Assembly: GCA_002719955.1 (NCBI GenBank)
Contig: PBFW01000020.1
Coordinates: forward strand, 9,651-73,650
DNA from: Deltaproteobacteria bacterium
GTDB taxonomy: Bacteria > Myxococcota_A > UBA9160 > UBA4427
Direction: 5' to 3'
Length of the DNA: 64,000 nt
Of the stretch, positions 4,581 through 42,805 are shown one piece after another. A program made the translations under genes and the position numbers. Every line of letters begins with the position of its first letter. Position 1 is the first letter of the stretch. The notes beneath the pieces were generated by a model. It had not been told where the DNA came from, did not search any database, and saw only the letters and a list, made by a program, of their open reading frames with translations.

Positions 4581-5189
4581 CTAGAGCAGTGCGCGAATCG
4601 TCTCCGCGGTTTCGAGGGCCGCCGCGAGGGGGTCGTCGAAGGGCCAGCCGCGCTCCGGCAGATCGAAATATTCGACGGATAGGCGTCCGCAATAGCCGAT
4701 CCGATCGAGCTCGTCGAAGATCGCGGCGAAGTCGACATCGCCTTCTCGCGCCTGGCTCTGGCCGACTTTCGCCTGGCGTAGCTGGATATGCGAGGCGTGG
4801 GGGAGCAATTCGATCACGTCACCGCCCCAGGCCGTCACGTGGCCCACGTCGAGCAGGAGCGAAAGGCCCGGAACCTCGCGAAGGATCGCCAGGGTCGCGT
4901 CATTGCTGCCGACCGCACCGCCGCCCCAGGGTTCGATGCGACAATTCGGGATCTGCGCGAAATCGGCCACGGTCTTCTCGAAGCTGCGGCGATCGGCGGC
5001 GAGTGGGCCCGTGCTGCAGCCCTCGGTGGGCCTCGGGGCGAAGCGGTCGTGGATCGGCAGCGCGAGTTCGTCGGCCACGTCGCCGGAGACGTCGATATGT
5101 TCGAATCCCTGTTTCTTGGCGAGTTCGGCCGCCTCTTCGATCGGCAGATCGCCGTACACGACGGAGACGATACCCAGGGGCCAGCGCAT
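4581..5189 (-). CDS. sugar phosphate isomerase/epimerase (xylose isomerase-like TIM barrel) family protein
   Basis: ORF track 4581..5225; the likely start is ATG 5189 (MRWPLGIVSVVYGDLPIEEAAELAKKQGFEHIDVSGD...). The C-terminal part (...LLLDVGHVTAWGGDVIELLPHASHIQLRQA...DFAAIFDELDRIGYCGRLSVEYF) is typical of AP-endonuclease-2/TIM-barrel isomerases. Confidence 0.8.
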   Translation of the reverse strand: MRWPLGIVSVVYGDLPIEEAAELAKKQGFEHIDVSGDVADELALPIHDRFAPRPTEGCSTGPLAADRRSFEKTVADFAQIPNCRIEPWGGGAVGSNDATLAILREVPGLSLLLDVGHVTAWGGDVIELLPHASHIQLRQAKVGQSQAREGDVDFAAIFDELDRIGYCGRLSVEYFDLPERGWPFDDPLAAALETAETIRALL

Positions 5190-5291
5190 ATTCGGCAAGC
5201 TACTCGGCCCCCGTCGTGGGTTCAAGCGCCATCGGACGCGCTGGAGCGCCTATACTGGGCCACCCATTGAAGGAAACTCTTGGAGGACTCC

Positions 5292-5831
5292 ATGGAACGA
5301 ATCCGCGTGCTCGACCCGACGGCGCCGCCGCCGGCGGTTTCGACCGACCCCGGGCCTGATGCCGGCTCGCTCGCGGGCAAGACGATCGGCTTTCGCCTCG
5401 ATCAAACCTGGCAATCCTTCTTCCACGTTCGGGACGAGTGGGTGGGCCGATTCGAAGAGGCCGGCGCCAGGGTGCGGGTCTGGGACGCGGGCCACCGCGT
5501 CGGGGAAGAGGGCGAACAAACCCGCCGAGAACTCGGGGAATTTGCCGACGCCGTGGATATCGCGGTCGTCGGCCTCGGGAATTGAGGCTCCTGCACCGCC
5601 TGGACGGTCCACGACACGGTCGCGGTCCTCGAGGCGGGCAAGACGGCGGTCGCCGTTGTGACGCAGGAATTCGAATCTCTCTCCCGCACGATGGCCTCGA
5701 ATGCCGGATGGCAGGGGCTGCGCGTGCAGGTTCTGCCCTATCCGCTCGAGGCGCGGCCCGATGAAGAAGTGCGCCAGATCGCGCGCGAATCTTATCCCGA
5801 ACTGCTCGCGGCGCTCGGCGTCTGCCACTGA
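5292..5831 (+). CDS. UGSC-motif (seleno)protein; in-frame TGA 5583-5585 read as selenocysteine
   Basis: GGAGGA at 5282-5287 precedes ATG 5292. The track ORF stops at TGA 5583-5585 (...DIAVVGLGN*). The same frame stays open 81 more codons to TGA 5829-5831 (GSCTAWTVHDTVAVLEAGKTAVAVVTQEFESLSRTMASNAGWQGLRVQVLPYPLEARPDEEVRQIARESYPELLAALGVCH). The stop therefore sits in GLGN-U-GSCT. Confidence 0.7.
5603..5630 (+). promoter_or_regulatory. possible bacterial SECIS-like hairpin downstream of UGA 5583
   Basis: A hand-drawn imperfect GC-rich stem-loop (GACGGUCCACGAC-ACG-GUCGCGGUCCUC) begins 18 nt 3' of the UGA. It was not folded computationally. Confidence 0.2.
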
Positions 5832-5856
5832 GCTCGGAGCGAGGAGGTCCATATCC

Positions 5857-6942
5857 ATGCCGGAAGGTGTCATCGACCGCGACTGCGGCCCAGAGGGCTG
5901 CGAGATCGACTGGCTGGCGAGTCCGCGTGTGGAGGTTTCCGCCGATGTGACGGCCTTCACGAAATTTGCGACGGATGCGGGTTGGGGTGACGGTCTGCCC
6001 CTCGTGCCTCCGACCGAGGCGCGGGTGCGCGAATATGTGAGCGCTTCCGGGCGTTTTCCCGATGAGCACCTGGGTGACCTGCCCCCGCGCAACGGGCGCT
6101 GCACCGTGGAAAAGGTCGCGATCAACGCCGTTCTGGCGGGGGCCCCCCCGAATGCCATGCGGCTGTTATGCGCGTCGATCGAGGCGATGCTCGAACCGCC
6201 GCTCAATCTCTTCGCCCTCAATACGACGACCTGCTGCGTCGTCCCGGGTGTCTTCGTCAACGGCCCGGCTCGGCACGAACTCGACTTGCCTTATTCGGCG
6301 GGTTGTTTTGGCGGCGAAGCCGGGCCGGCCCCACCGATCGGCCGGGCGCTGCGTCTGCTCATGAGAAATGTCGGAGGGCAGGTCGTCGGCGTCTCCTCGA
6401 AGAGCGTTTTCGGGCAGCCGGGCCGGGTGACCGGCATCGTGGTTGCGGAATGGGAGGAACGATCACCCTGGGCACCGCTCGGCGAGCGTCGCGGGGTCGT
6501 CGGAAATGCGCTGACGGTCCACGGCGTCACCGGCACCATCGACGTCGCCGACACCGTCGCGCAGAACGGCGTCGACCTGCTCGAGATCATCGGCAAGTCG
6601 CTGGCCTTTCCCGGCACGAATGCCTTCATCGGCGGGGACCATGGCGCCGAGGTCTTCCTCGCCATCGCGCCGCCCTGGGCGGATCTGATCGCGAAATCCT
6701 ATCCCGAGATCGAGACGGTGCAGGAGAAACTCTGGGAACATGCGGCGCTTCCCGTCGACTGGTGGCCCCGGGCCCACCAACGCGAATACGAAGAGCAGGG
6801 CCGGATCGATGAGCGCGGTCGCGTGCCACTCGTGAAATCGCCCGAGCGCGTGGTCGTGTTGGTCTGTGGGGGACTCGGCAACCTGCATGCCCTGGCGATG
6901 CATAGCTTCGGACCGACGCAGGCCGTGACGCACCCATTCTGA
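5857..6942 (+). CDS. conserved hypothetical protein (362 aa) coupled to the UGSC gene
   Basis: ORF track 5701..6942. ATG 5857 is preceded by GAGGAGG (5841-5847), 25 nt after the UGSC stop. The sequence is protein-like throughout (…TDAGWGDGLPLVPPTEARVREYV…TVEKVAINAVLAGAPPNAMRLL…ALNTTTCCVVPGVFVNGP…IGRALRLLMRNVGG…). I do not recognise a named domain. Confidence 0.75.
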   Translation: MPEGVIDRDCGPEGCEIDWLASPRVEVSADVTAFTKFATDAGWGDGLPLVPPTEARVREYVSASGRFPDEHLGDLPPRNGRCTVEKVAINAVLAGAPPNAMRLLCASIEAMLEPPLNLFALNTTTCCVVPGVFVNGPARHELDLPYSAGCFGGEAGPAPPIGRALRLLMRNVGGQVVGVSSKSVFGQPGRVTGIVVAEWEERSPWAPLGERRGVVGNALTVHGVTGTIDVADTVAQNGVDLLEIIGKSLAFPGTNAFIGGDHGAEVFLAIAPPWADLIAKSYPEIETVQEKLWEHAALPVDWWPRAHQREYEEQGRIDERGRVPLVKSPERVVVLVCGGLGNLHALAMHSFGPTQAVTHPF

Positions 6943-7224
6943 TCAGGGCTCGGCGGGTTTGGGTCTGATCTCGCCCCCCCGAAATCCCTCGATCAGTTCA
7001 GCCATCCCCGCATTCGTCCGGCGATGGCTCGCCACCACCACGAGAAGACCCGCCTCGCGATGTAGATCGAGCGCTCATGCGAGGGCATCCAGGATCCACT
7101 CGCTGCGATTTCCAAATGCGCCGCCCCCGAGAAGCGTGACGAAGACGAATGGATTTCCTGTGCGGTTCCGGTTGAGCGCGCCCGCGGCGAGGCGGTCAAG
7201 GGGAGTGCCGAGGCATACGCCTGG
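6943..7224 (-). pseudogene. gene remnant (possibly macro-domain/PARG-like C-terminus) with an in-frame TGA and no start
   Basis: The minus frame reads PGVCLGTPLDRLAAGALNRNRTGNPFVFVTLLGGGAFGNRSEWILDALA-TGA(7075-7077)-ALDLHREAGLLVVVASHRRTNAGMAELIEGFRGGEIRPKPAEP*. It is bounded upstream by a stop at 7225-7227 and has no start codon. The family guess is weak. Confidence 0.3.
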
Positions 7225-7350
7225 CTATCGCCCCGCCCCATCGGGGCTGGGTTAGGATGGGAGCGAGTTGGGCGGAAGATCGCGTGATTCCTTTTCTGGC
7301 AAGGACCGGGGAGACCGAAGGGGATTCGCCGACGGAGGCACGAGTACAGA

Positions 7351-8526
7351 GTGAAGATCGATATTTTTAGCGAGATCCAGCGGGCGGGCTGGGAGCGGAA
7401 GAAGGAGGGGAAGCTGATCGGGGATTCGATCGAGTTGGCCAAGGTCGCGGACGAGACCGGTTACGGCGCCTGGTGGCAGGTCGAGCATAATGGTTCGGGG
7501 GCCTTCAGCATCAGCTCGGCGCCGGAACTATTCAATGCGATTCTGGCGCGGGAGACACAGAAGATTCGCCTGGGTCAGGCTGGTGTGCTCTCGCCCTTCA
7601 AGATCAATCATCCGCTGAGGGTCGCTGCGCGGGCGGCTTTCACCGATATCGTCAGCGGCGGTCGCGTGGAGTTGGGCGTCGCGCGCTCTTCGGGCAATGA
7701 GTGGACGCGCTTCCAGGTCGACGGCGAAACGACGCGCGAAGAGACGAGCGAACTCCTGCGGATGCTTCCGCGCATGTGGTCGAATGATCGCTTCAGCTGG
7801 AAGAGCGATTTGATCGAGATCCCCGAGGTCGATGTGGTTCCGAAGCCGGTCCAGAAGCCGCATCCGCCGATGTGGCTAACGGGGACGGCCCAGGCGGCCT
7901 TCGAAGAGGCGGGCGGGCTCGGAGTCGGGGCGATCGCGACGACGATGCTCTGGCCGATCGAGAGCATCAAGGTATTGGTCGACGCCTATCGCCAGGCGAT
8001 TGATGCTTGCGAAGAGCCCGCGGGCGATGTGATGAACGACCAGTTCGGTTGTTTCACGTTCGTGCATTGCGCGCCGAGTCGGGAAGAGGCGATCGCGAGT
8101 GGCGCTTGCGAGGCTGCGCTCTGGTACGCGAATACGGCGCCGAGCGTCTTCAATAATCCCCGCGGCGCCCTCGTCGACGCGATTCGGGGTCTCTACGCGC
8201 CAGATCTCGAGAGCTGGCGCCATTCCCACGAAGAGAAGGTCGAGTACGCAGTCGACCCCGACGACCCGGTGCCGGTGGTTCGCCTGATGAATCGACAATA
8301 CCTGGGGATGGAGATCGATCCGGAGGAGGCCTATGAGGTTCTCGGGGCGATCGATTCGGTCATCATCGGGGATCCCGATACGTGTCTGGCCAAGATGAAG
8401 AAATTCGAGGAGGTCGGTGTCGATCGCCTCCTGACGCTGCAGCAGTTCGGCGCCCTGCAGCACAAGCGTGTTCTCGGCAGCTTGCGCCTGATCGGCGAGG
8501 AGCTGGTGCCGCAGATCGACGTCTGA
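7351..8526 (+). CDS. LLM-class (luciferase-like) flavin-dependent monooxygenase/oxidoreductase
   Basis: 391-aa ORF with a GTG start. Signatures: MKIDIFSEIQ..., ...GYGAWWQVEHN..., IRLGQAGVLSPFKINHPLRVAARAAFTDIVSGGRVELGVARS, VQKPHPPMW. These indicate a bacterial luciferase-like TIM barrel. Confidence 0.9.
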   Translation: MKIDIFSEIQRAGWERKKEGKLIGDSIELAKVADETGYGAWWQVEHNGSGAFSISSAPELFNAILARETQKIRLGQAGVLSPFKINHPLRVAARAAFTDIVSGGRVELGVARSSGNEWTRFQVDGETTREETSELLRMLPRMWSNDRFSWKSDLIEIPEVDVVPKPVQKPHPPMWLTGTAQAAFEEAGGLGVGAIATTMLWPIESIKVLVDAYRQAIDACEEPAGDVMNDQFGCFTFVHCAPSREEAIASGACEAALWYANTAPSVFNNPRGALVDAIRGLYAPDLESWRHSHEEKVEYAVDPDDPVPVVRLMNRQYLGMEIDPEEAYEVLGAIDSVIIGDPDTCLAKMKKFEEVGVDRLLTLQQFGALQHKRVLGSLRLIGEELVPQIDV

Positions 8527-10841: not shown

Positions 10842-11588
10842 TCATGCCGAGGGTAGGCGGATTTTGAGATTCCGTGCGGCACACCACCTCTCCAGGAATT
10901 CCTCTCGTGGAATCACCCGCGCACCTAACACTCTCTTGTAGGTATGATGGGGATGTCCCATATTCCAGAAAGCGAAGCCGAGATCTCGTAGCCGCTGCGC
11001 GAGCAAGACTATCTGCAATGTTCCGAAATGACGCCAGGTTCGATCGGGCCGCGTGCAGAATCCCGAGAGACTCGTGTAGGTCCCGCCGATCGTGTATCCG
11101 AGTTCGCCAGCGATGAGTTCTGCTCCCCTACTTCCTTTCATCGACCAGAGTTCGGTCCCACGAAGCGCGAAGCCGAAATCCCCGTCAGCGGGGAGCCTGG
11201 GGAGGAGGGCGCAATAGGGGGCGCTGAGCCAGGTTCGTGGCCCGTGATAGGCGAGGAGGCATTTGAGGACCCGCCTGCAATCGTCGACGATTCGCAACTC
11301 GATTCCCTCGTCCTCGAGTCGCCCCGATCGGATGATTTTCCGGACGTGACCGGATACGTGTAGATTCGGCCAATCGAGGACGGCATAGGCGTCCTGGAGT
11401 TCGGCGATCAGGACTGCGCCGAGATCGGGATGTCTCTGCGAGATCGAAATGAATCCGGCGCGAGCAAGCGCCACGTAGAAAACTGGATCCCAATCCGTCG
11501 ACCAGAAATGGGTCTCCTCGAGATTCGGGTAGAAAATCTCGCGCAGAATATCCTCGTGAAGCATGTCTGGCGAGATAGGGCGGATCAT
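10842..11588 (-). CDS. leucyl/phenylalanyl-tRNA-protein transferase-like (Aat-family/GNAT-fold) protein
   Basis: 248-aa ORF. Its layout resembles L/F-transferase: ...LHVSGHVRKIIRSGR..., ...ELIAGELGYTIGGTYTSLSGF..., ...LQIVLLAQRLRDLGFAFWNMGHPHHTYKRVLGARVIPREEFLERW. It is divergent and the assignment is from memory. Confidence 0.5.
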   Translation of the reverse strand: MIRPISPDMLHEDILREIFYPNLEETHFWSTDWDPVFYVALARAGFISISQRHPDLGAVLIAELQDAYAVLDWPNLHVSGHVRKIIRSGRLEDEGIELRIVDDCRRVLKCLLAYHGPRTWLSAPYCALLPRLPADGDFGFALRGTELWSMKGSRGAELIAGELGYTIGGTYTSLSGFCTRPDRTWRHFGTLQIVLLAQRLRDLGFAFWNMGHPHHTYKRVLGARVIPREEFLERWCAARNLKIRLPSA

Positions 11589-11780
11589 ATGCGGCTTTCG
11601 GGATCTCCTACTCGAAGAGAGTCCTATGATGGCCTCCTCGAACGAAGCCCGCGACCGCTCGTGGAGCCCCTATCAGCACGCGACTCGATCTCGTTAGACT
11701 GACGGAGTGCGCCAAACCAAGCGCGTTGGCTGGTTCGCACGGACCTTCCTCCCAAGTCATGACAGAACAGGAAGCCAGAA

Positions 11781-12662
11781 ATGGATATCGGACTCATCAG
11801 CACCGGCGGCCCGCCGCAGATCGTCGAACGTTACGTACAGACCGCCGAAGCGGCGGGTTTTGCCTCGCTCTGGGCCTCGGAGCACGTCGTCTTCTTCGAG
11901 GATTTCGATCCCAGCTATCCCTATGCGGAGGGGGGGCGCCCGCCGATGGCCACGGATACTGCGATGATGGAGCCGCTCAATCTCCTCTCCTTTATCGCGG
12001 CGAAGACGGAACGTCTTCGTCTGGGGACGGGCGTCTTCCTGCTGCCTCAGCGCAATCCCGTCTATACGGCGAAGGAGACATCGACCCTCGATGTGCTCTC
12101 GGGGGGGCGCCTCGATTTTGGGATCGGCGTCGGCTGGCTGCGCGAAGAATTCGAAGCGGTGAATGTCCCCTTCGAAGAGCGTGGCGCCCGCTGTGACGAA
12201 TATATCGAGGTCTTGAAGCGGCTCTGGACCCAGGATGTGGCCGAGTATTCGGGTCGCTTCTACGCGTTGGCTCCCTGCATCCAGGAGCCGCACCCGGTCC
12301 AGAAGCCGCACCCTCCGATTCTGATCGGAGGGACTTCCGCGCCTGCGATTCGCCGCGCCGCACGCCTGGGAGACGGATGGGTGGCCATCAATTTGTCTCC
12401 GGAAGAGGCCGCGCAGAAACTAACGAGCTTGCGGGCGCAGCGGCAGGAGGCCGGGCTCAGCATGGACCGTTTCCGCTCCACCCTGATGGCCGTGAATTAT
12501 GCCATCGAGCCGGATGACCTCGCCCACTACCGCGACGCCGGTATCGATCAGATCGTGCTCCCACCCATGAGAGGTGATCGGATTCTGCGCACGGACGAGG
12601 ACCTCTTCGCTCTGGTGGAAGAAATCGGCGAGCGCTTCGTCGGGGTCGCGGCGAAGCTCTGA
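11781..12662 (+). CDS. LLM-class F420-dependent oxidoreductase (Rv2161c/TIGR03619-like)
   Basis: 293 aa: MDIGLISTGG..., AGFASLWASEHVVF, LRLGTGVFLLPQRNPVYTAKETSTLDVLSGGRLDFGIGVGWLREEFEAVNVPFEERGARCDEYIEVLKRLW, VQKPHPPILIGG. Confidence 0.88.
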   Translation: MDIGLISTGGPPQIVERYVQTAEAAGFASLWASEHVVFFEDFDPSYPYAEGGRPPMATDTAMMEPLNLLSFIAAKTERLRLGTGVFLLPQRNPVYTAKETSTLDVLSGGRLDFGIGVGWLREEFEAVNVPFEERGARCDEYIEVLKRLWTQDVAEYSGRFYALAPCIQEPHPVQKPHPPILIGGTSAPAIRRAARLGDGWVAINLSPEEAAQKLTSLRAQRQEAGLSMDRFRSTLMAVNYAIEPDDLAHYRDAGIDQIVLPPMRGDRILRTDEDLFALVEEIGERFVGVAAKL

Positions 12663-12856
12663 TGCAGAGCCTCTCGGGGTCGAGCGCCACGCGTCGTGGC
12701 CATCCGCCTCGGGAAGTGCCGCCGCGCTCGCTGAGGTGAAAGCTGGAGGTTACCTGGGCCCGCAGGACTGGCACGCTCGCTGCAATGGATCCTCTTGTAA
12801 ATGCATGACGAGCCGCGGGGCCACGCTCTTCGGTCAAAATCTGGAGGAGGCCAGGC

Positions 12857-22763: not shown

Positions 22764-23618
22764 ATGTTCGAGATCGCCAGGACCACATCGCTTACGGTGC
22801 TGCGAAAGGTTCCGACGGGGTGGATGCTCGGAGCAGACGATCGCGAGGTGCTGCTCCCGACGCGTTTCGTACCAGAGGGGACGAAGCGCGGCGATCGGCT
22901 CGAGGTCTTTCTGTATACGGATTCGGAAGATCGTCCGATCGCGACGACGGCGAGGCCGCTCGCGCAGGCGGGTGAGTTTGCCGGACTTCGGGTCGCCTCG
23001 GTGAACTCGACTGGCGCTTTTCTCGACTGGGGGCTTCCGAAGGATCTGCTCTTGCCCTTTCGGTCTCAGCTCGGGCGACTTCGGCCCGGACAACGGGTCG
23101 TGGTCTACGTCGATTGCGATTCGGTCTCCGGTCGACCGGTTGCGTCCGCCAAGGTCGAGCGCTTTCTCGAAATCCCACCCGAGCAATTGCGTGAGGGCCA
23201 GGCGGTTGAGATTCTCGTCTATGAGGAGACCGAGCTGGGTGCAAAAGCGATCGTCGACGGCCGCTTCGGAGGACTGCTCTATGCCGATTCGGGCAGGAGC
23301 CAGCTCGAGATTGGTGTCGCGGCTGGCGGGTACATCGATCGTATCCGTCCGGATGGGAAGGTCGATCTCTCTCTCGCACCCAGGGGTCGGGCGGGGGCGG
23401 AGCAGGCGAGGGAGATCCTCTTGCGAGCGCTCGAGCGGGCTGGCGGACGTCTCGAACTCTCGGATGGGAGTTCGCCCGAGGAGATTCGTCGGGAACTCGG
23501 CCTCAGCAAGAAGGCTTTCAAGCGGGCGGTCGGTGCGCTCTACCGAGAGCGGCGTATTCGTCTTGAGGATTTATCGATCGAGTGGACGGATTCGGGGAAG
23601 AAGGGCGGCGAAATGTGA
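22764..23618 (+). CDS. S1-like RNA-binding domain protein, CvfB/YitL family
   Basis: In ORF 22650..23618; ATG at 22764. ...GWMLGADDREVLLPTRFVPEGTKRGDRLEVFLYTDSEDRPIATT...GAFLDWGLPKDLLLPF...RPDGKVDLSLAPRG... plus a winged-helix-like C-terminus ...LGLSKKAFKRAVGALYRERRI. Confidence 0.85.
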   Translation: MFEIARTTSLTVLRKVPTGWMLGADDREVLLPTRFVPEGTKRGDRLEVFLYTDSEDRPIATTARPLAQAGEFAGLRVASVNSTGAFLDWGLPKDLLLPFRSQLGRLRPGQRVVVYVDCDSVSGRPVASAKVERFLEIPPEQLREGQAVEILVYEETELGAKAIVDGRFGGLLYADSGRSQLEIGVAAGGYIDRIRPDGKVDLSLAPRGRAGAEQAREILLRALERAGGRLELSDGSSPEEIRRELGLSKKAFKRAVGALYRERRIRLEDLSIEWTDSGKKGGEM

Positions 23619-24250
23619 AAGATGACCCGTATTCGATCGATCCCGCCCAGCGGACGACCATCCTGGCCCACTACTATCGAGCGATGGTCGGTCGAGCCGA
23701 CATCTGGCGAACGCGCCTGGATGCGACGACGAACTGGGCCATCGGCGCGACTGCGGCGATTATTTCCTTCACCCTGGGCAACGATCAGGTTCCCCATTAT
23801 GTGGTCTTCATCGCGCCCCTGATGACCTGCAGTTTCCTGCTCCTCGAGGCCCGCCGGCTCACGTTCTATCATCTCTGGCAACAGCGCGTGCTCCTGCTCG
23901 AAGAGGGATTGATGCGCCCCGCGCTCTCCGCTGCGGCCGAAGGGAGTTTCGACCTGTCGGCGTCGCTCGAGGGTCATCTCGGCCGCACGATTCCCACGAC
24001 GCCGCTCGCGAAGGCCGTCGCGCGTAGGCTCTGACGGGTCTCTCTCTATCTCTTCGCGGTTCAGCTGCTCGCCTGGACACTGAAACTCGTCGATCATCCG
24101 ACGCCCGCGAAGTCGATCGCGACGGTCGTCGAACGGGCGGATCTTGGCTTCTTGTCCGGCTGAGGGGTGATTGCCGGGGGAGTGGTTCTGGTGGTGATGG
24201 TGCTGATCGTCTCGATCCTGCGAGTTGGCATCGATCGCGATCCGGCCTGA
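23615..24250 (+). pseudogene. DUF2270-like integral membrane protein gene interrupted by two in-frame TGAs (24032-24034, 24161-24163)
   Basis: The GTG at 23615 overlaps the cvfB-like stop (GTGA). ...ILAHYYRAMVGRADIWRTRLDATTNWAIGATAAIISF...LEARRLTFYHLWQQRVLLLE...AVARRL-TGA-RVSLYLFAVQLLAWTLKLVDHPTPAKSIATVVERADLGFLSG-TGA-GVIAGGVVLVVMVLIVSILRVGIDRDPA*. The parts after each TGA keep the frame, the codon bias and TM-helix character. Confidence 0.6.
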
Positions 24251-25480: not shown

Positions 25481-26215
25481 ATGTTTAGTTATGTGTCGTT
25501 GGAGGCACGGATCCCTTCGGATCATCCGCTTCGACAGATGCGAACCATGGTGGATCGGGCCTTGGAGTCGATCTCGGCGGGGTTCTCGGAGCTGAGCCCG
25601 ACGATGGGGAGGCCTGCAATCCCACCGGAACGGCTGCTTCGCGCCCTTCGTGTGCAGATCCCGTTCTCAGCCCCCAGCGAACGTCAGTTGATGGAGCAGC
25701 TCGAGTACAACCTGCTCTAACCGCTGCTTCGTCGGGCTCGGCATGGATGATCCGGTCTGGGATCCGACGACGTTCGGGAAGAACCGGGATCGGTTGCTGG
25801 AAGGCGACGTTGCGCGGGCCTTCTTCGACACCGTGCACGAGTAGGCCTCCGAGAAGAAGCTCTTGTCGTCGAACCACTTCACCGAGGACGGGACGCTGAT
25901 CGAGGCTTGGCGAGCACAAGAGCTTTCAGCCGAAGAAGGACAAGAACGGCCAGAGCCAGTGGGGTTCCGGTGGTGGAGGCTCTCGTAACGAGACGGTCTC
26001 CTGCCATGGCCAGAAGCGCTTGAACGACACGCAGGACTCTGTCGATGCGTGTCGGTCCCTTGCGGTCACGCCCCACGTGGCGCAGAACACGTCGAACCGG
26101 TCGAGCCGGATCGACGGTCGATCGACGCGACACGGGGGCTACGCGGTCAGTCAGCGCCGCCGGAAGCGGGTCGAAGAGGTCTTTGGTTGGACGAAGACGG
26201 GCGGTCTGCTAGCGC
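25481..26215 (+). mobile_element. degraded IS5/IS1182-family transposase gene (frameshifts, stops, internal deletion of the DDE core)
   Basis: The N-terminal domain is intact (MFSYVSLEARIPSDHPLRQMRTMVDRALESISAGFSELSPTMGRPAIPPERLLRAL...SERQLMEQLEYNLL*). It then continues in other frames: ...CFVGLGMDDPVWDPTTFGKNRDRLLEGDVARAFFDTVHE*, ...LLSSNHFTEDGTLIEAW..., GGGGSRNETVSCHGQKRLNDTQDSVDA. From there it jumps straight to the C-terminal motif ...VTPHVAQNTSNRSSRIDGRSTRHGGYAVSQRRRKRVEEVFGWTKTGGL. I could not define the inverted repeats. Confidence 0.8.
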
Positions 26216-26661
26216 ACGGCCACACGAAGAATCGAGAGCGCTTTGTCCGCGTGGCCCGACATGTCGAGTTCGCTCTTGATGATGCCCAGAATCTTTCGGT
26301 CCCTTCCGATCACGAAAGTGGCGCGCTTATTCGGCAGAGGACCGAACCGCTTCACGCCGAAGCCTCTCGCGATCTCGCGATCGGGATCCGAGAGAAGCGG
26401 GAAGCCGAGATCGTTCTCTTCGTCGAAGGTTTTCTGCCGATCCACCGGATCGGCGCTGATTCCCACGCGCTGGGCACCGAGTTCCGAGAACTCGCGAGCC
26501 AGGTCACGAAAGTGGCAGCATTCGATCGTTCAACCCGGCGTCATCGCCTTCGGATAGAAGAAGAGCGCGAGCGGCCCGCTCGCGAGAAGATCACTCAGCC
26601 GGACGATCTTTCCGTCCTGGTCCGTTGAGGCGAAATCACTCACCAGATCGTTCGTCTCCAT
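26209..26661 (-). CDS. bcp: BCP/PrxQ-type peroxiredoxin with TGA (selenocysteine candidate) at the peroxidatic position
   Basis: ATG 26661 follows AAGGAG. METNDLVSDFASTDQDGKIVRLSDLLASGPLALFFYPKAMTPG-TGA(plus tca 26530-26532)-TIECCHFRDLAREFSELGAQRVGISADPVDRQKTFDEENDLGFPLLSDPDREIARGFGVKRFGPLPNKRATFVIGRDRKILGII... The track lists only the 3' 85 codons (26209..26466). Confidence 0.8.
26479..26493 (-). promoter_or_regulatory. perfect 6-bp hairpin downstream of the peroxiredoxin UGA (possible part of a SECIS element)
   Basis: On the mRNA strand, GAGUUC-UCG-GAACUC lies 37-51 nt 3' of the UGA. Found by hand; the distance is on the long side for a bacterial SECIS. Confidence 0.15.
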
Positions 26662-40558: not shown

Positions 40559-42805
40559 CTAACCCGCGTCCGCAACGGGAAGCGGTGATGCCGGTTCACG
40601 CGCGTCGTCGCGTGCGCGCAGGAGACCGAAGGCGGCTTGCAGGTGCGCCCGATCGCCGTGTCGCGAGGGCGTGGGGTGCCGGGTGTCCGTTCCGTCCGGC
40701 CTCCCGGGCCGATGCTCCGGCGTGTGGAACGCCGACGACCCCTCGCGGGTCGCGGCCGCTTCGATCGTCCCGTGACGTTGTGCTTCGATACGCTCTTCGA
40801 CCTCGAACTGGAAGCCGGCATCGTTGGCATCGTCGTGGCAGGTTCCGCAGACCTTGAGGATCACGCAGGAATCACATTTGTCGCCGAGGGAGAGGATGGT
40901 GCCGACGCGCCTTGCGCTCTCGCCGATATGCTCGCTCCCCGGCCCGTGGCACGACTCGCAGCCGACACGTGCGAGATCGGATTGGGCCGAGACGGGGGCA
41001 CCGGGCGGAAATCCGCCGGGGCGGCCATACGCCGTCGTGTGACACTCCAGACAGCCTTCTTCGCCGGCCTGCCCCGTCTTTTCGAGGGTGGCGACCGAAT
41101 GGCCGTGGGGGCTCGCCTGCCAGGTCTTGAATTCCGACTCGTGACAGACCTGACAGGCTTCGGAGCCGACATAGTCGGCTGAGGTGGGGAGGAGGTCTCG
41201 GCTGGGGCCGCCCCCTTCGAGAAGCTGGCTGCGCTCCTCGTTCGAGAGGGATGCGATCCGCTTGTGGGAGACCCGCGGATGGAAGCTGGTGAAGTCGAAG
41301 CCGAGGGAGTGGGTCGGGTTGTGACAGGTCGCACAGACCTGGGCGTAGTCGCGTTTCGAGTCCTCGCCCCTCGGAACGAAATCCGGGCTCAGGTGTGGCC
41401 CGCCTCGGCCGTGGCACGACTCGCAGCCGACGTTCTCGAGATGAGCGGGTCGCCGGCTGAAATCGTAACCGCCCCTCTCCTCGAAGCCGACGACGTGGCA
41501 GCCGATGCAATCCGTTCGTCGATCGGCGGCGTGGGCGACGAGCGTCTCGAAAGCGGTGGCGTGTTTGGTGTACTGCCAGGCCGCATGTTCCTGCTCGTGG
41601 CAGGCCCCGCAAGCATCGTTGCCGCTGAATCCCTTCGCTTCGAGCAACATCGGCGCGGGCGCACCCGCTGCGCGGGACGCGTGCAGGCGCAGCAATCCGC
41701 CGTCGCGCTGCCCGTTCCAGCCCTGACTGCGATGCCGCAGGCGTCCTTCGCTGTCGACCACGGCCACGACGGGGACGCCACCGGTCACGCCCCAGCGGTC
41801 CGTAGCCTTGCCACTCGGGTCGAGGAAGGGATCGAAGAAGTCGAGCCCGAGATCAGCGAGCGACTTGCGGAGCGCGCTGGGCGAGTTCTGGATCGAGACC
41901 GCGACCAGGCGCGGCCGTTGTTCCAGGGGGATCGAGTCCAGAATGCCCTTGATCGCTTCCAGCGCCCTGTGACAGTGCGGACAGGTGTGCAGGAAGAAGA
42001 TCACGATGGCCGCGCGGCCCTGCAATTCTTTCGTCTCGAGCGATTGCCCGGTCGACATCGCGATCACGCCGAGTTCCGGGGCCTGGGGGTAGCCATAGAG
42101 CGCGCCCTTGCCATCCGCGACGGTGGCGGAGAGCCGCAGGCGGCTGCGCAATTCCTTGTCCGCGAAGGCACGCAGATCGCCGTCCTTTGGGAAGCCGGCG
42201 AAGCCGAAGGTCATGTAGCCGTCGGCGTCCACGCCGACCGCGGCGACCGCCGCGTTCAGCCGAAGCAACTGCGTAATCTTTCCGCCGCTATCGTCGATCA
42301 CGGGGAAGTCGAGACCCCCGTCTTTTGCGAAACGGGAGAGCGTGGCTGCATTCGAGCCGACGCCGATCCCGACGACGCGAATATTATGGTCGAGGGCGTC
42401 GGGAACGAGCGCGTTGACCGCGGCGCTCACCGGCGCGGACTCATCGGCCTCGGGGTTGAAGAAGAAGAGCAGGACACGTGCCCCCAGCAGGCTGCTCATC
42501 GAGAGTCGAGTGCCCGCGATGGTCGTACCCTCGAAGGCCGGAACCGGACGCTCATTGGGATTCCGCGCGGCCTTCTCGCCCTTGGCTTTCAGCGCTCGAG
42601 CGCTCGTCGTCGACGATGCCTGAGGGCCGTGATCGTGGGTTTCACCAGTGGCGGTTCCGGGGCTGCTCTCTTTCGTGGTCTCCGCGCGGGTCGCGGCGCC
42701 GGGGGGGGGCGTCTCCTCGCCCGTGCAGGCGATCGCGCCAGAGATCAGAAAACACAGAAGGATCGGGATCGGGAGGCCTCGAATGCCTCGGGTCGGTTTC
42801 GACAT
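40559..42805 (-). CDS. lipoprotein fusing two thioredoxin-fold (TlpA/redoxin-like) domains to an octa-haem c-type cytochrome (cytochrome c554-like multihaem) module
   Basis: 748 aa with the lipobox LLCFLISGAIAC. The first redoxin-like domain lacks CxxC (VLLFFFNPEADESAP). The second carries FFLHTCPHCHRALEA. There are eight CxxCH sites: CGACH, CIGCH, CESCH, CATCH, CQVCH, CLECH, CESCH and CGTCH. Confidence 0.85.
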   Translation of the reverse strand: MSKPTRGIRGLPIPILLCFLISGAIACTGEETPPPGAATRAETTKESSPGTATGETHDHGPQASSTTSARALKAKGEKAARNPNERPVPAFEGTTIAGTRLSMSSLLGARVLLFFFNPEADESAPVSAAVNALVPDALDHNIRVVGIGVGSNAATLSRFAKDGGLDFPVIDDSGGKITQLLRLNAAVAAVGVDADGYMTFGFAGFPKDGDLRAFADKELRSRLRLSATVADGKGALYGYPQAPELGVIAMSTGQSLETKELQGRAAIVIFFLHTCPHCHRALEAIKGILDSIPLEQRPRLVAVSIQNSPSALRKSLADLGLDFFDPFLDPSGKATDRWGVTGGVPVVAVVDSEGRLRHRSQGWNGQRDGGLLRLHASRAAGAPAPMLLEAKGFSGNDACGACHEQEHAAWQYTKHATAFETLVAHAADRRTDCIGCHVVGFEERGGYDFSRRPAHLENVGCESCHGRGGPHLSPDFVPRGEDSKRDYAQVCATCHNPTHSLGFDFTSFHPRVSHKRIASLSNEERSQLLEGGGPSRDLLPTSADYVGSEACQVCHESEFKTWQASPHGHSVATLEKTGQAGEEGCLECHTTAYGRPGGFPPGAPVSAQSDLARVGCESCHGPGSEHIGESARRVGTILSLGDKCDSCVILKVCGTCHDDANDAGFQFEVEERIEAQRHGTIEAAATREGSSAFHTPEHRPGRPDGTDTRHPTPSRHGDRAHLQAAFGLLRARDDAREPASPLPVADAG

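Follow-up and report, generated by a model that had tools for sequence, protein, structure and literature searches.

A probable UGSC-family selenoprotein gene split at its UGA codon, with tandem downstream hairpins and a conserved partner gene

The DNA analysed here (the 'window') is a 64,000-nucleotide stretch of contig PBFW01000020.1 (positions 9,651 to 73,650 of the forward strand) from assembly GCA_002719955.1 of a Deltaproteobacteria bacterium, and our subject is positions 5292–5831 of this window. We conclude that these positions very probably constitute one gene for a 179-residue selenoprotein of the UGSC family, in which the UGA at 5583–5585 would be decoded as selenocysteine (Sec) under the direction of two messenger RNA (mRNA) hairpins, termed P2 and P3, and whose product would serve as redox partner of the 361-residue protein encoded by the next gene. 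UGSC-containing proteins are a predicted selenoprotein family whose function is uncharacterised (PMC2398784, PMC13188914); they are among the most abundant selenoprotein families of marine and freshwater samples (PMC2398784, PMC13188914), and the Global Ocean Sampling (GOS) survey counted 255 Sec as opposed to 21 Cys sequences (PMC2398784). The locus adds one more, quite ordinary, member to a family that was first described in 2005, and gene callers have wrongly divided it at the Sec UGA. What goes beyond routine re-annotation is the presence of tandem hairpins that are specific to Sec forms, a near-obligatory partner gene and a predicted fold that corrects the one assumed for the family so far.

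One reading frame for a UGSC-family protein

The frame that opens at ATG 5292, behind a ribosome-binding site GGAGGA at 5283–5288 and at the point where the alignment of homologues begins, runs for 179 codons to the true stop TGA 5829–5831 and is interrupted only once, by the TGA at 5583–5585 (codon 98). A preliminary description of this DNA, made from the letters alone, had noticed this TGA and the 81 further open codons that follow it, and both its coordinates and its translation proved exact. Together with the codons GGC TCC TGC that follow, the TGA spells a U-G-S-C redox motif (5583–5594) that aligns with the C-G-S-C of Cys-containing homologues. When U is replaced by C, the read-through product matches Pfam PF24696 over its full length (108.8 bits, the cut-off being 25; residues 6–176 on profile positions 2–171 of 172), in agreement with the family assignment of the preliminary description. 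A search of 5.8 billion proteins returned 545 significant matches, the best 120 of which are 46–55% identical to the query. All of these 120 carry a Cys at residue 98, as had been anticipated, and another at +3, within the consensus N-C-G-S-C-T-x-W-T; G99 is likewise conserved, as is C101, and S100 is present in 119 of them. Homologues ending at the position of the TGA would have spoken for a genuine stop, and none do so unless they carry the same TGA themselves. In some of the Cys forms a NifU domain precedes the UGSC domain, as in the homologue P0014 (NifU at residues 12–75, UGSC at 97–268).

The public gene calls for this locus are uniform in cutting it. In three independent assemblies with an identical locus (ENA ERZ17293539, NCBI GCA_024449815.1 and Logan ERR868453) the gene is represented by a 97-aa open reading frame (ORF) without a Pfam match and a 57-aa ORF annotated as PF24696:UGSC. 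These two fragments are to be merged into one selenoprotein, and the same correction applies to about 85 further genomes and to the peroxiredoxin gene described below.

Relatives with the same in-frame TGA were collected with the degenerate DNA pattern AAY TGA GGN WSN TGY ACN NNN TGG AC, using one genome per GTDB species. This pattern matched 98 loci. In about 85 of them the TGA occupies the corresponding codon of a UGSC gene, and the sequences before and after it are both homologous to the window protein. These Sec forms are 34–88% identical to the window protein (median 57%), and most of them belong to Acidimicrobiia (including 'Ca. Poriferisocius'), to Myxococcota or to metagenome-assembled genomes (MAGs) labelled Spirochaetes or Deltaproteobacteria; the nearest are Myxococcota MAGs, namely L079 (88% identical and syntenic), L085 (73%) and L006 (70%). 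Over the 78 codons that follow the UGA, the entropy among 44 non-redundant Sec forms is 0.64 bits at the first codon position, 0.54 at the second and 1.16 at the third, which reveals purifying selection on the protein; this selection is stronger downstream of the UGA than upstream of it.

Hairpins downstream of the UGA codon

Folding of 5583–5650 yields a minimum free energy (MFE) of -34 kcal/mol with z = -1.7, and folding of 5570–5680 gives z = -2.84. P2 (5596–5637) is a long imperfect hairpin that starts 13 nt after the U of the UGA and carries the apical loop ACG (5616–5618). It is found in nearly all of 47 non-redundant Sec forms, with its base at +10/+13 to +55/+56 and its apex at +32 to +36, and its loop sequence varies among them (GCG, ACG, GCA, GCC and others). 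The preliminary description had drawn a hairpin at 5603–5630; such a hairpin does exist and is GC-rich and imperfect as described, but it corresponds only to the inner part of P2 and is not the most conserved recoding element. That element is P3 (5642–5657), a 6-bp hairpin GACGGC-GGUC-GCCGUU with the loop GGUC at 5648–5651, which we consider a candidate SelB-binding minihelix. In the Sec forms the block AAG ACG GCG GTC GCC GTC, located about 60 nt past the UGA, is nearly invariant and folds as GACGGC-GGUC-GCCGUC, the window differing by a U in place of the consensus C at the last position.

The control for this conservation was a set of 80 Cys-form loci from metagenomes, and 47 Sec and 62 Cys forms, all non-redundant, were compared in codon register. 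Over +57 to +71 the third-position entropy amounts to 0.15, 0, 0.15, 0 and 0.40 bits in the Sec forms as opposed to 1.40, 1.37, 1.64, 1.64 and 1.73 bits in the Cys forms. The synonymous sites on either side show the same degree of saturation in both sets (1.0–1.8 bits), so that shared ancestry cannot account for the invariance of P3. The encoded peptide differs as well, reading K-T-A-V-A-V-V in the Sec forms versus L-P-T-T/V-A-V-A in the Cys forms, and P3 forms part of the MFE fold in 36 of the 47 Sec forms versus none of the 62 Cys forms. An alignment-free comparison of folding energies with those of dinucleotide shuffles showed the same contrast, both for the P2 region (mean z of -2.68 in Sec and -0.11 in Cys forms, p = 3e-15) and for the P3 region (-2.70 and -0.47, p ~1e-15). 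A weak outer pairing, P1, in which 5589–5594 pairs with 5663–5668 to enclose both hairpins (5589–5668), appears in the MFE fold and is suggestive at most: across the Sec forms it occurs in either of two registers, depending on whether Ser is encoded by UCN or AGC, with only 56% of the cells paired in a fixed register, and such a pairing would need to melt once the UGA occupies the A site.

A comparable layout is seen in another selenoprotein gene of the window. The preliminary description had pointed to another Sec-type TGA at 26530, and this TGA is real: it lies on the minus strand (26532–26530) within ...FFYPKAMTPG-U-TIECC... and replaces the peroxidatic Cys of a BCP-type AhpC/TSA peroxiredoxin (Prx; 26209–26661, minus strand). 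Read-through yields a product with a full-length PF00578 match (108.7 bits), and Cys occupies the Sec position in 92 of 94 full-length homologues; two full-length database entries have Trp there and are probably Sec genes translated with a code in which TGA means Trp. Akin to UGSC, many close Prx relatives are split in public gene calls, here into fragments of 43–45 aa and 85–107 aa. Peroxiredoxins count among the abundant selenoprotein families on record (PMC2398784). The presence of a Cys-aligned TGA in a Prx gene of the same window is independent support for Sec decoding in this organism. In the Prx mRNA a long hairpin (+13 to +77) directly precedes an 8-bp hairpin whose loop is GGU, GCCGAUCC-GGU-GGAUCGGC (+78 to +96; 26436–26454, minus strand), and this two-hairpin layout is kept in four Sec-Prx relatives of 67–85% protein identity. 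In these relatives the apex of the first hairpin covaries (GAGUUC-NNN-GARCUC), and the second, P3-like hairpin is conserved at the nucleotide level, with a single C-to-U change that retains a G-U pair. The hairpin-forming peptide GISADPVDRQ occurs in 19 of 24 truncated (Sec) Prx forms as opposed to 8 of 94 Cys forms, which mostly have ADKVDK instead. A search that started from the hairpins, run over ~0.7 Mb of Sec-using genomes, recovered only UGSC and the window Prx, plus two implausible matches. Redoxin-like domains are also found in a 748-aa gene of the window (40559–42805, minus strand), in which two AhpC/TSA or redoxin-like domains are fused to multihaem cytochrome c554/c7-type domains; the first of the two is apparently devoid of Cys (FFFNPEADESAP).

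These features suggest that recoding would be directed by mRNA structure within the coding sequence, consisting of a variable P2 followed by an invariant P3. In the mechanism that we favour, P3 would be the minihelix to which SelB binds, and P2 would act as a structured spacer that is folded at the mRNA entrance of the ribosome and brings P3 to about the canonical distance. With P2 folded, its two ends lie side by side, and the distance that separates the UGA from the loop of P3 would shrink to ~13 + 2 + 6 = 21 nt; with the first Prx hairpin closed, the effective distance in the Prx mRNA is 13 + 0 + 8 = 21 nt, equal to that in UGSC. Structural work on SelB describes a selenocysteine insertion sequence (SECIS) hairpin that has a stem of 6–8 bp and, ~20 nt from the UGA, a conserved G in its loop, and that is gripped by winged-helix domains 3/4 of SelB at the mRNA entrance (PMC4605307). 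The tandem layout offers a case for studying how SelB copes when a structured segment is inserted between its binding site and the UGA.

The partner gene and the predicted fold

Ten nucleotides past the UGSC stop lies the ribosome-binding site GAGGAGG (5841–5847), where the preliminary description had put it, ahead of an ATG at 5857 that opens a 361-aa gene (5857–6942, forward strand) rich in invariant Cys residues. This gene is a conserved companion of UGSC: it adjoins UGSC in 82 of the ~85 Sec loci and in 76 of the 80 Cys loci (about 95%), and in Cys-form genomes the two genes overlap by 4 nt. More than 2,900 homologues were found, the top 120 being 70–93% identical across phyla (Myxococcota, Acidimicrobiia) and all labelled hypothetical; the invariant residues include C10, C15, C105 and C150, and no Pfam or NCBIfam family matched the protein. 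Its stop codon, TGA 6940–6942, had been flagged in a scan for in-frame TGAs, with 40 coding-like codons following in frame; since the homologues end there (354–366 aa), we take it as a true stop. The structural model of the partner has a predicted local distance difference test (pLDDT) score of 79.6 and a predicted template modelling (pTM) score of 0.83, and the partner represents a large conserved family with, possibly, a new fold. UGSC would most likely be the redox (thiol/selenol-disulfide) subunit or the reductant of this co-translated partner, to which it would be coupled physically or functionally. For an abundant selenoprotein family that has been without an assigned function for about 20 years, a near-universal and translationally coupled partner provides a concrete pair to assay.

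On the other side of UGSC, and divergent from it, lies a xylose-isomerase-like TIM-barrel gene (4581–5225, minus strand). The corresponding gene adjoins UGSC in 17 Sec-form loci and in no Cys-form locus, and so may constitute a third, lineage-specific element of this gene neighbourhood. In addition, one contig (L189; JGI Ga0556604_0001811) holds two UGSC modules, at 6001–7859 and 11157–12772. In the first, a Cys form fused to NifU precedes a gene of about the size of the partner (347 aa, no Pfam match), a possible partner homologue. In the second, on the opposite strand, UGSC is split into fragments of 100 aa and 78 aa and is presumably a Sec form, with a 348-aa gene, likewise a possible partner homologue, ahead of UGSC rather than after it.

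The fold of UGSC was examined with an AlphaFold2 model of the Cys homologue P0001 (53% identical; 32 aligned sequences; pLDDT 92, pTM 0.86). The model consists of five parallel beta-alpha units, with the C/U-x-x-C motif placed between beta-3 (residues 90–96) and the N-terminus of alpha-3 (99–114). The best PDB matches in Foldseek are flavodoxin-like or Rossmann-like proteins, i.e. flavodiiron proteins, WrbA, MdaB, NQO1 and short-chain dehydrogenases/reductases (TM scores of 0.4–0.5, 11–19% identity, E-values of ~1e-4 to 1e-3), and no thioredoxin-like fold was present among the listed top 50; a search of PDB sequences with the UGSC protein gave nothing significant. A thioredoxin-like fold had been proposed for UGSC (PMC2398784). 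The model instead predicts a flavodoxin-like fold and so corrects that assumption, and the position of the CxxC at a helix N-terminus is plausibly compatible with thioredoxin-like redox chemistry. Decoding of the UGA as Sec would endow the protein with a U-G-S-C selenenylsulfide redox motif.

Among the remaining genes of the window, Pfam scans identified LpxC, a TPR Ser/Thr kinase, a 2,624-aa TPR protein and multihaem cytochromes. In combination with the nearest relatives of the UGSC gene, this gene content suggests that the source is a marine bacterium resembling Myxococcota.

Alternative explanations and relation to known systems

Several results weigh against the reading proposed above. The NCBIfam equivalog NF041046 scores the protein at 74 bits, below its cut-off of 125, and aligns with the C-terminal half only (residues 80–175 on profile positions 51–146 of 147); the protein thus sits in a diverged branch, mostly of Myxococcota and Acidimicrobiia, and by these profile scores it belongs to the broad UGSC family and lies outside the narrower equivalog. 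The structural matches of P0001 are generic alpha/beta folds that indicate neither a cofactor nor a substrate. For the partner, a PDB sequence search found nothing and the best Foldseek match, a class I fumarate hydratase (E = 0.012, TM 0.28), is uninformative. With regard to Sec machinery, Pfam scans of ~40 ORFs revealed no selA, selB or selD in the window, and ARAGORN detected no tRNA there; nor was a tRNA-Sec found in the fetched loci L001–L178, in ~1.1 Mb of which ARAGORN reported only two tRNAs and may under-call. The preliminary description had looked to a SECIS covariance model for support, which did not come: the Rfam SECIS families went unmatched at gathering thresholds over the whole window, and within 5400–5900 they remained unmatched even at E <= 10. 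Covariation in a fixed register is only marginal (69.6% of the cells paired versus 68.3% in shuffles; 90% for P3 and 64% for P2), a consequence of the invariance of P3 and of register shifts in P2 and P1 from one sequence to the next; for this reason our evidence is drawn from the contrasts between Sec and Cys forms instead. P3 itself, being near-invariant, shows only one-sided compatible changes, from A-U to G-U in 12 sequences and from G-C to G-U in 6, and RNAalifold on the codon-register alignment recovered five of its six pairs together with a spurious 2-bp helix. Finally, hairpins of at least 6 bp with a GGU loop are not unusual in this GC-rich window (14 seen versus ~8 expected). One of them, the P3-like CGCGGC-GGUC-GCCGCG at 42254–42239 (minus strand), lies in the Cys-less redoxin-like domain of the 748-aa gene, where it codes for N-A-A-V-A-A-V and has no upstream UGA, and was dismissed as a chance occurrence.

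One alternative is that TGA 5583 is a true stop, in which case the gene would be a 97-aa N-terminal fragment and the downstream 81 codons either a decaying remnant or a 57-aa ORF with a start of its own. Public gene callers annotate the locus in this way, and TGA is the commonest stop codon of the window. There is also a likely nonsense-mutated gene in the window: the DUF2270 membrane-protein gene (23582–24175, forward strand) has in-frame TGAs at 24032–24034 and ~24161–24163, and reading through them raises its Pfam score from 108 to 149 bits and its profile coverage from 123 to 170 of 184 positions. These TGAs were considered as Sec codons and rejected, as homologues have Arg (RRL-R-R) at the first and a variable residue at the second, and no RNA structure follows (z = +0.18); the first TGA is one transition away from CGA, and DUF2270 is probably a recently inactivated gene rather than a selenoprotein. 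As opposed to this case, the UGSC TGA recurs in ~85 genomes of several phyla with homology on both sides, stands where an invariant CxxC motif has its first Cys, precedes codons that are under stronger purifying selection than those upstream, and is followed by Sec-specific hairpins and by no closely placed ribosome-binding site or start codon, so that a true stop appears highly improbable. More improbable still is a decoding of the UGA as something other than Sec, be it through genome-wide reassignment to Trp or Gly, near-cognate read-through with Cys or Trp, or a TGC/TGT codon misread in sequencing or assembly. Such a view could appeal to the lack of direct evidence for Sec machinery in the genome, none having been found in the window, and to the two full-length Prx entries with W at the U position, which probably reflect another translation code. 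TGA, however, ends 25 of the 35 window genes, including UGSC and its downstream partner, which shows that the codon is not reassigned, and the Arg and variable residues that align with the DUF2270 TGAs yield no consistent alternative meaning. An error is countered by the identical sequence in at least three independent assemblies and by the TGA in ~85 genomes. Our scan found eight in-frame TGAs flanked on both sides by coding-like sequence (its length filter missed the Prx TGA), and among the in-frame TGA candidates of the window only those of UGSC and Prx align with an invariant catalytic Cys, both in documented selenoprotein families (PMC2398784). Selenium incorporation at UGA 5583–5585 is predicted from comparative sequence data.

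The main rival concerns the signal rather than the decoding: the gene would be a Sec gene, with P2 alone as the functional SECIS and P3 as an accessory element (a clamp, a pause site or an enhancer of efficiency) rather than the SelB site. This is a serious possibility, although not the one we prefer. The published model of the bacterial SECIS (bSECIS) calls for a loop of 3–9 nt, a stem of 4–16 bp, a distance of 16–37 nt between UGA and loop and an MFE <= -7.5 kcal/mol, with a G within the first two nucleotides of the loop, mostly as G[G|U] (PMC13188914). P2 complies in spacing, stem and energy: it starts at +13, its apical loop lies 30–34 nt past the UGA, and it is specifically stable in Sec forms. 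Many Sec-form loops are GCG or GCA, with G first, and a GU at +36/+37 is conserved. P3 complies in its GGUC loop, its 6-bp stem and its energy (-8.5 kcal/mol), but its loop is 62 nt from the UGA, owing to the interposed ~44-nt hairpin, and this distance counts against P3 just as the ACG loop of P2 in the window counts against a canonical P2. Moreover, three divergent Sec forms (L025, L051 and L080) do not have the exact P3 sequence; by eye, they nevertheless keep, in the place of P3, a weaker hairpin of the form CCG...CGG, with GGUC (L051, L080) or GUC (L025) in the loop. Against P2 as the SECIS, its loop is unconserved and often without the required G (ACG here; ACC, ACU or ACA elsewhere), the invariance of synonymous sites falls on P3, as a sequence-specific protein contact predicts, and the first Prx hairpin, although again followed by a GGU hairpin, has its apex at ~41 nt from the UGA and so exceeds the allowed distance. 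We prefer P3 as the candidate SelB site, the data being compatible with either assignment. We venture tentatively that the UGSC and Prx mRNAs of Myxococcota/Acidimicrobiia-type bacteria might define a distinct class of SECIS, in which a GGU(C) minihelix stands 60–85 nt off behind a rigid spacer hairpin, and that UGSC might be the dedicated redox subunit of a 361-aa Cys-rich enzyme, possibly of a new fold. SECIS predictors that are confined to loops 16–37 nt from the UGA may choose the wrong element or miss genes in such lineages.

How the locus compares with known systems can be summarized as follows. The canonical bacterial SECIS of the E. coli fdhF type resides, as here, in the coding region just past the UGA, and P3 resembles it in its 6-bp GC stem and its 4-nt loop starting with GGU, as does P2 in having its base at +13; the difference is that the P3 loop is too distal, and that P2, at the canonical distance, has no conserved loop. 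Sec-containing peroxiredoxins (Prx/BCP; the T-x-x-U type in GOS) are matched by the full-length AhpC/TSA protein of the window, in which TGA replaces the peroxidatic Cys, and they form a protein family separate from UGSC. With flavodoxin-like oxidoreductases (WrbA, MdaB, NQO1 and the flavodoxin domain of flavodiiron proteins) the UGSC model shares five parallel strands alternating with helices; these proteins have no CxxC/UxxC at the motif position, however, and the model has no evident site for flavin mononucleotide, so that the likeness is one of fold and not of membership. In the published accounts of the UGSC family that were consulted (PMC2398784, PMC13188914), neither the 361-aa partner nor the two-hairpin recoding signal was seen to be mentioned. 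Compared with the UGSC selenoproteins of the Sargasso Sea and GOS surveys, finally, the window protein falls below the NF041046 cut-off and is modelled as flavodoxin-like where a thioredoxin-like fold had been suggested, while it has the U-G-S-C at the same position, Cys homologues, a length of ~180 aa and a full-length Pfam match in common with them.

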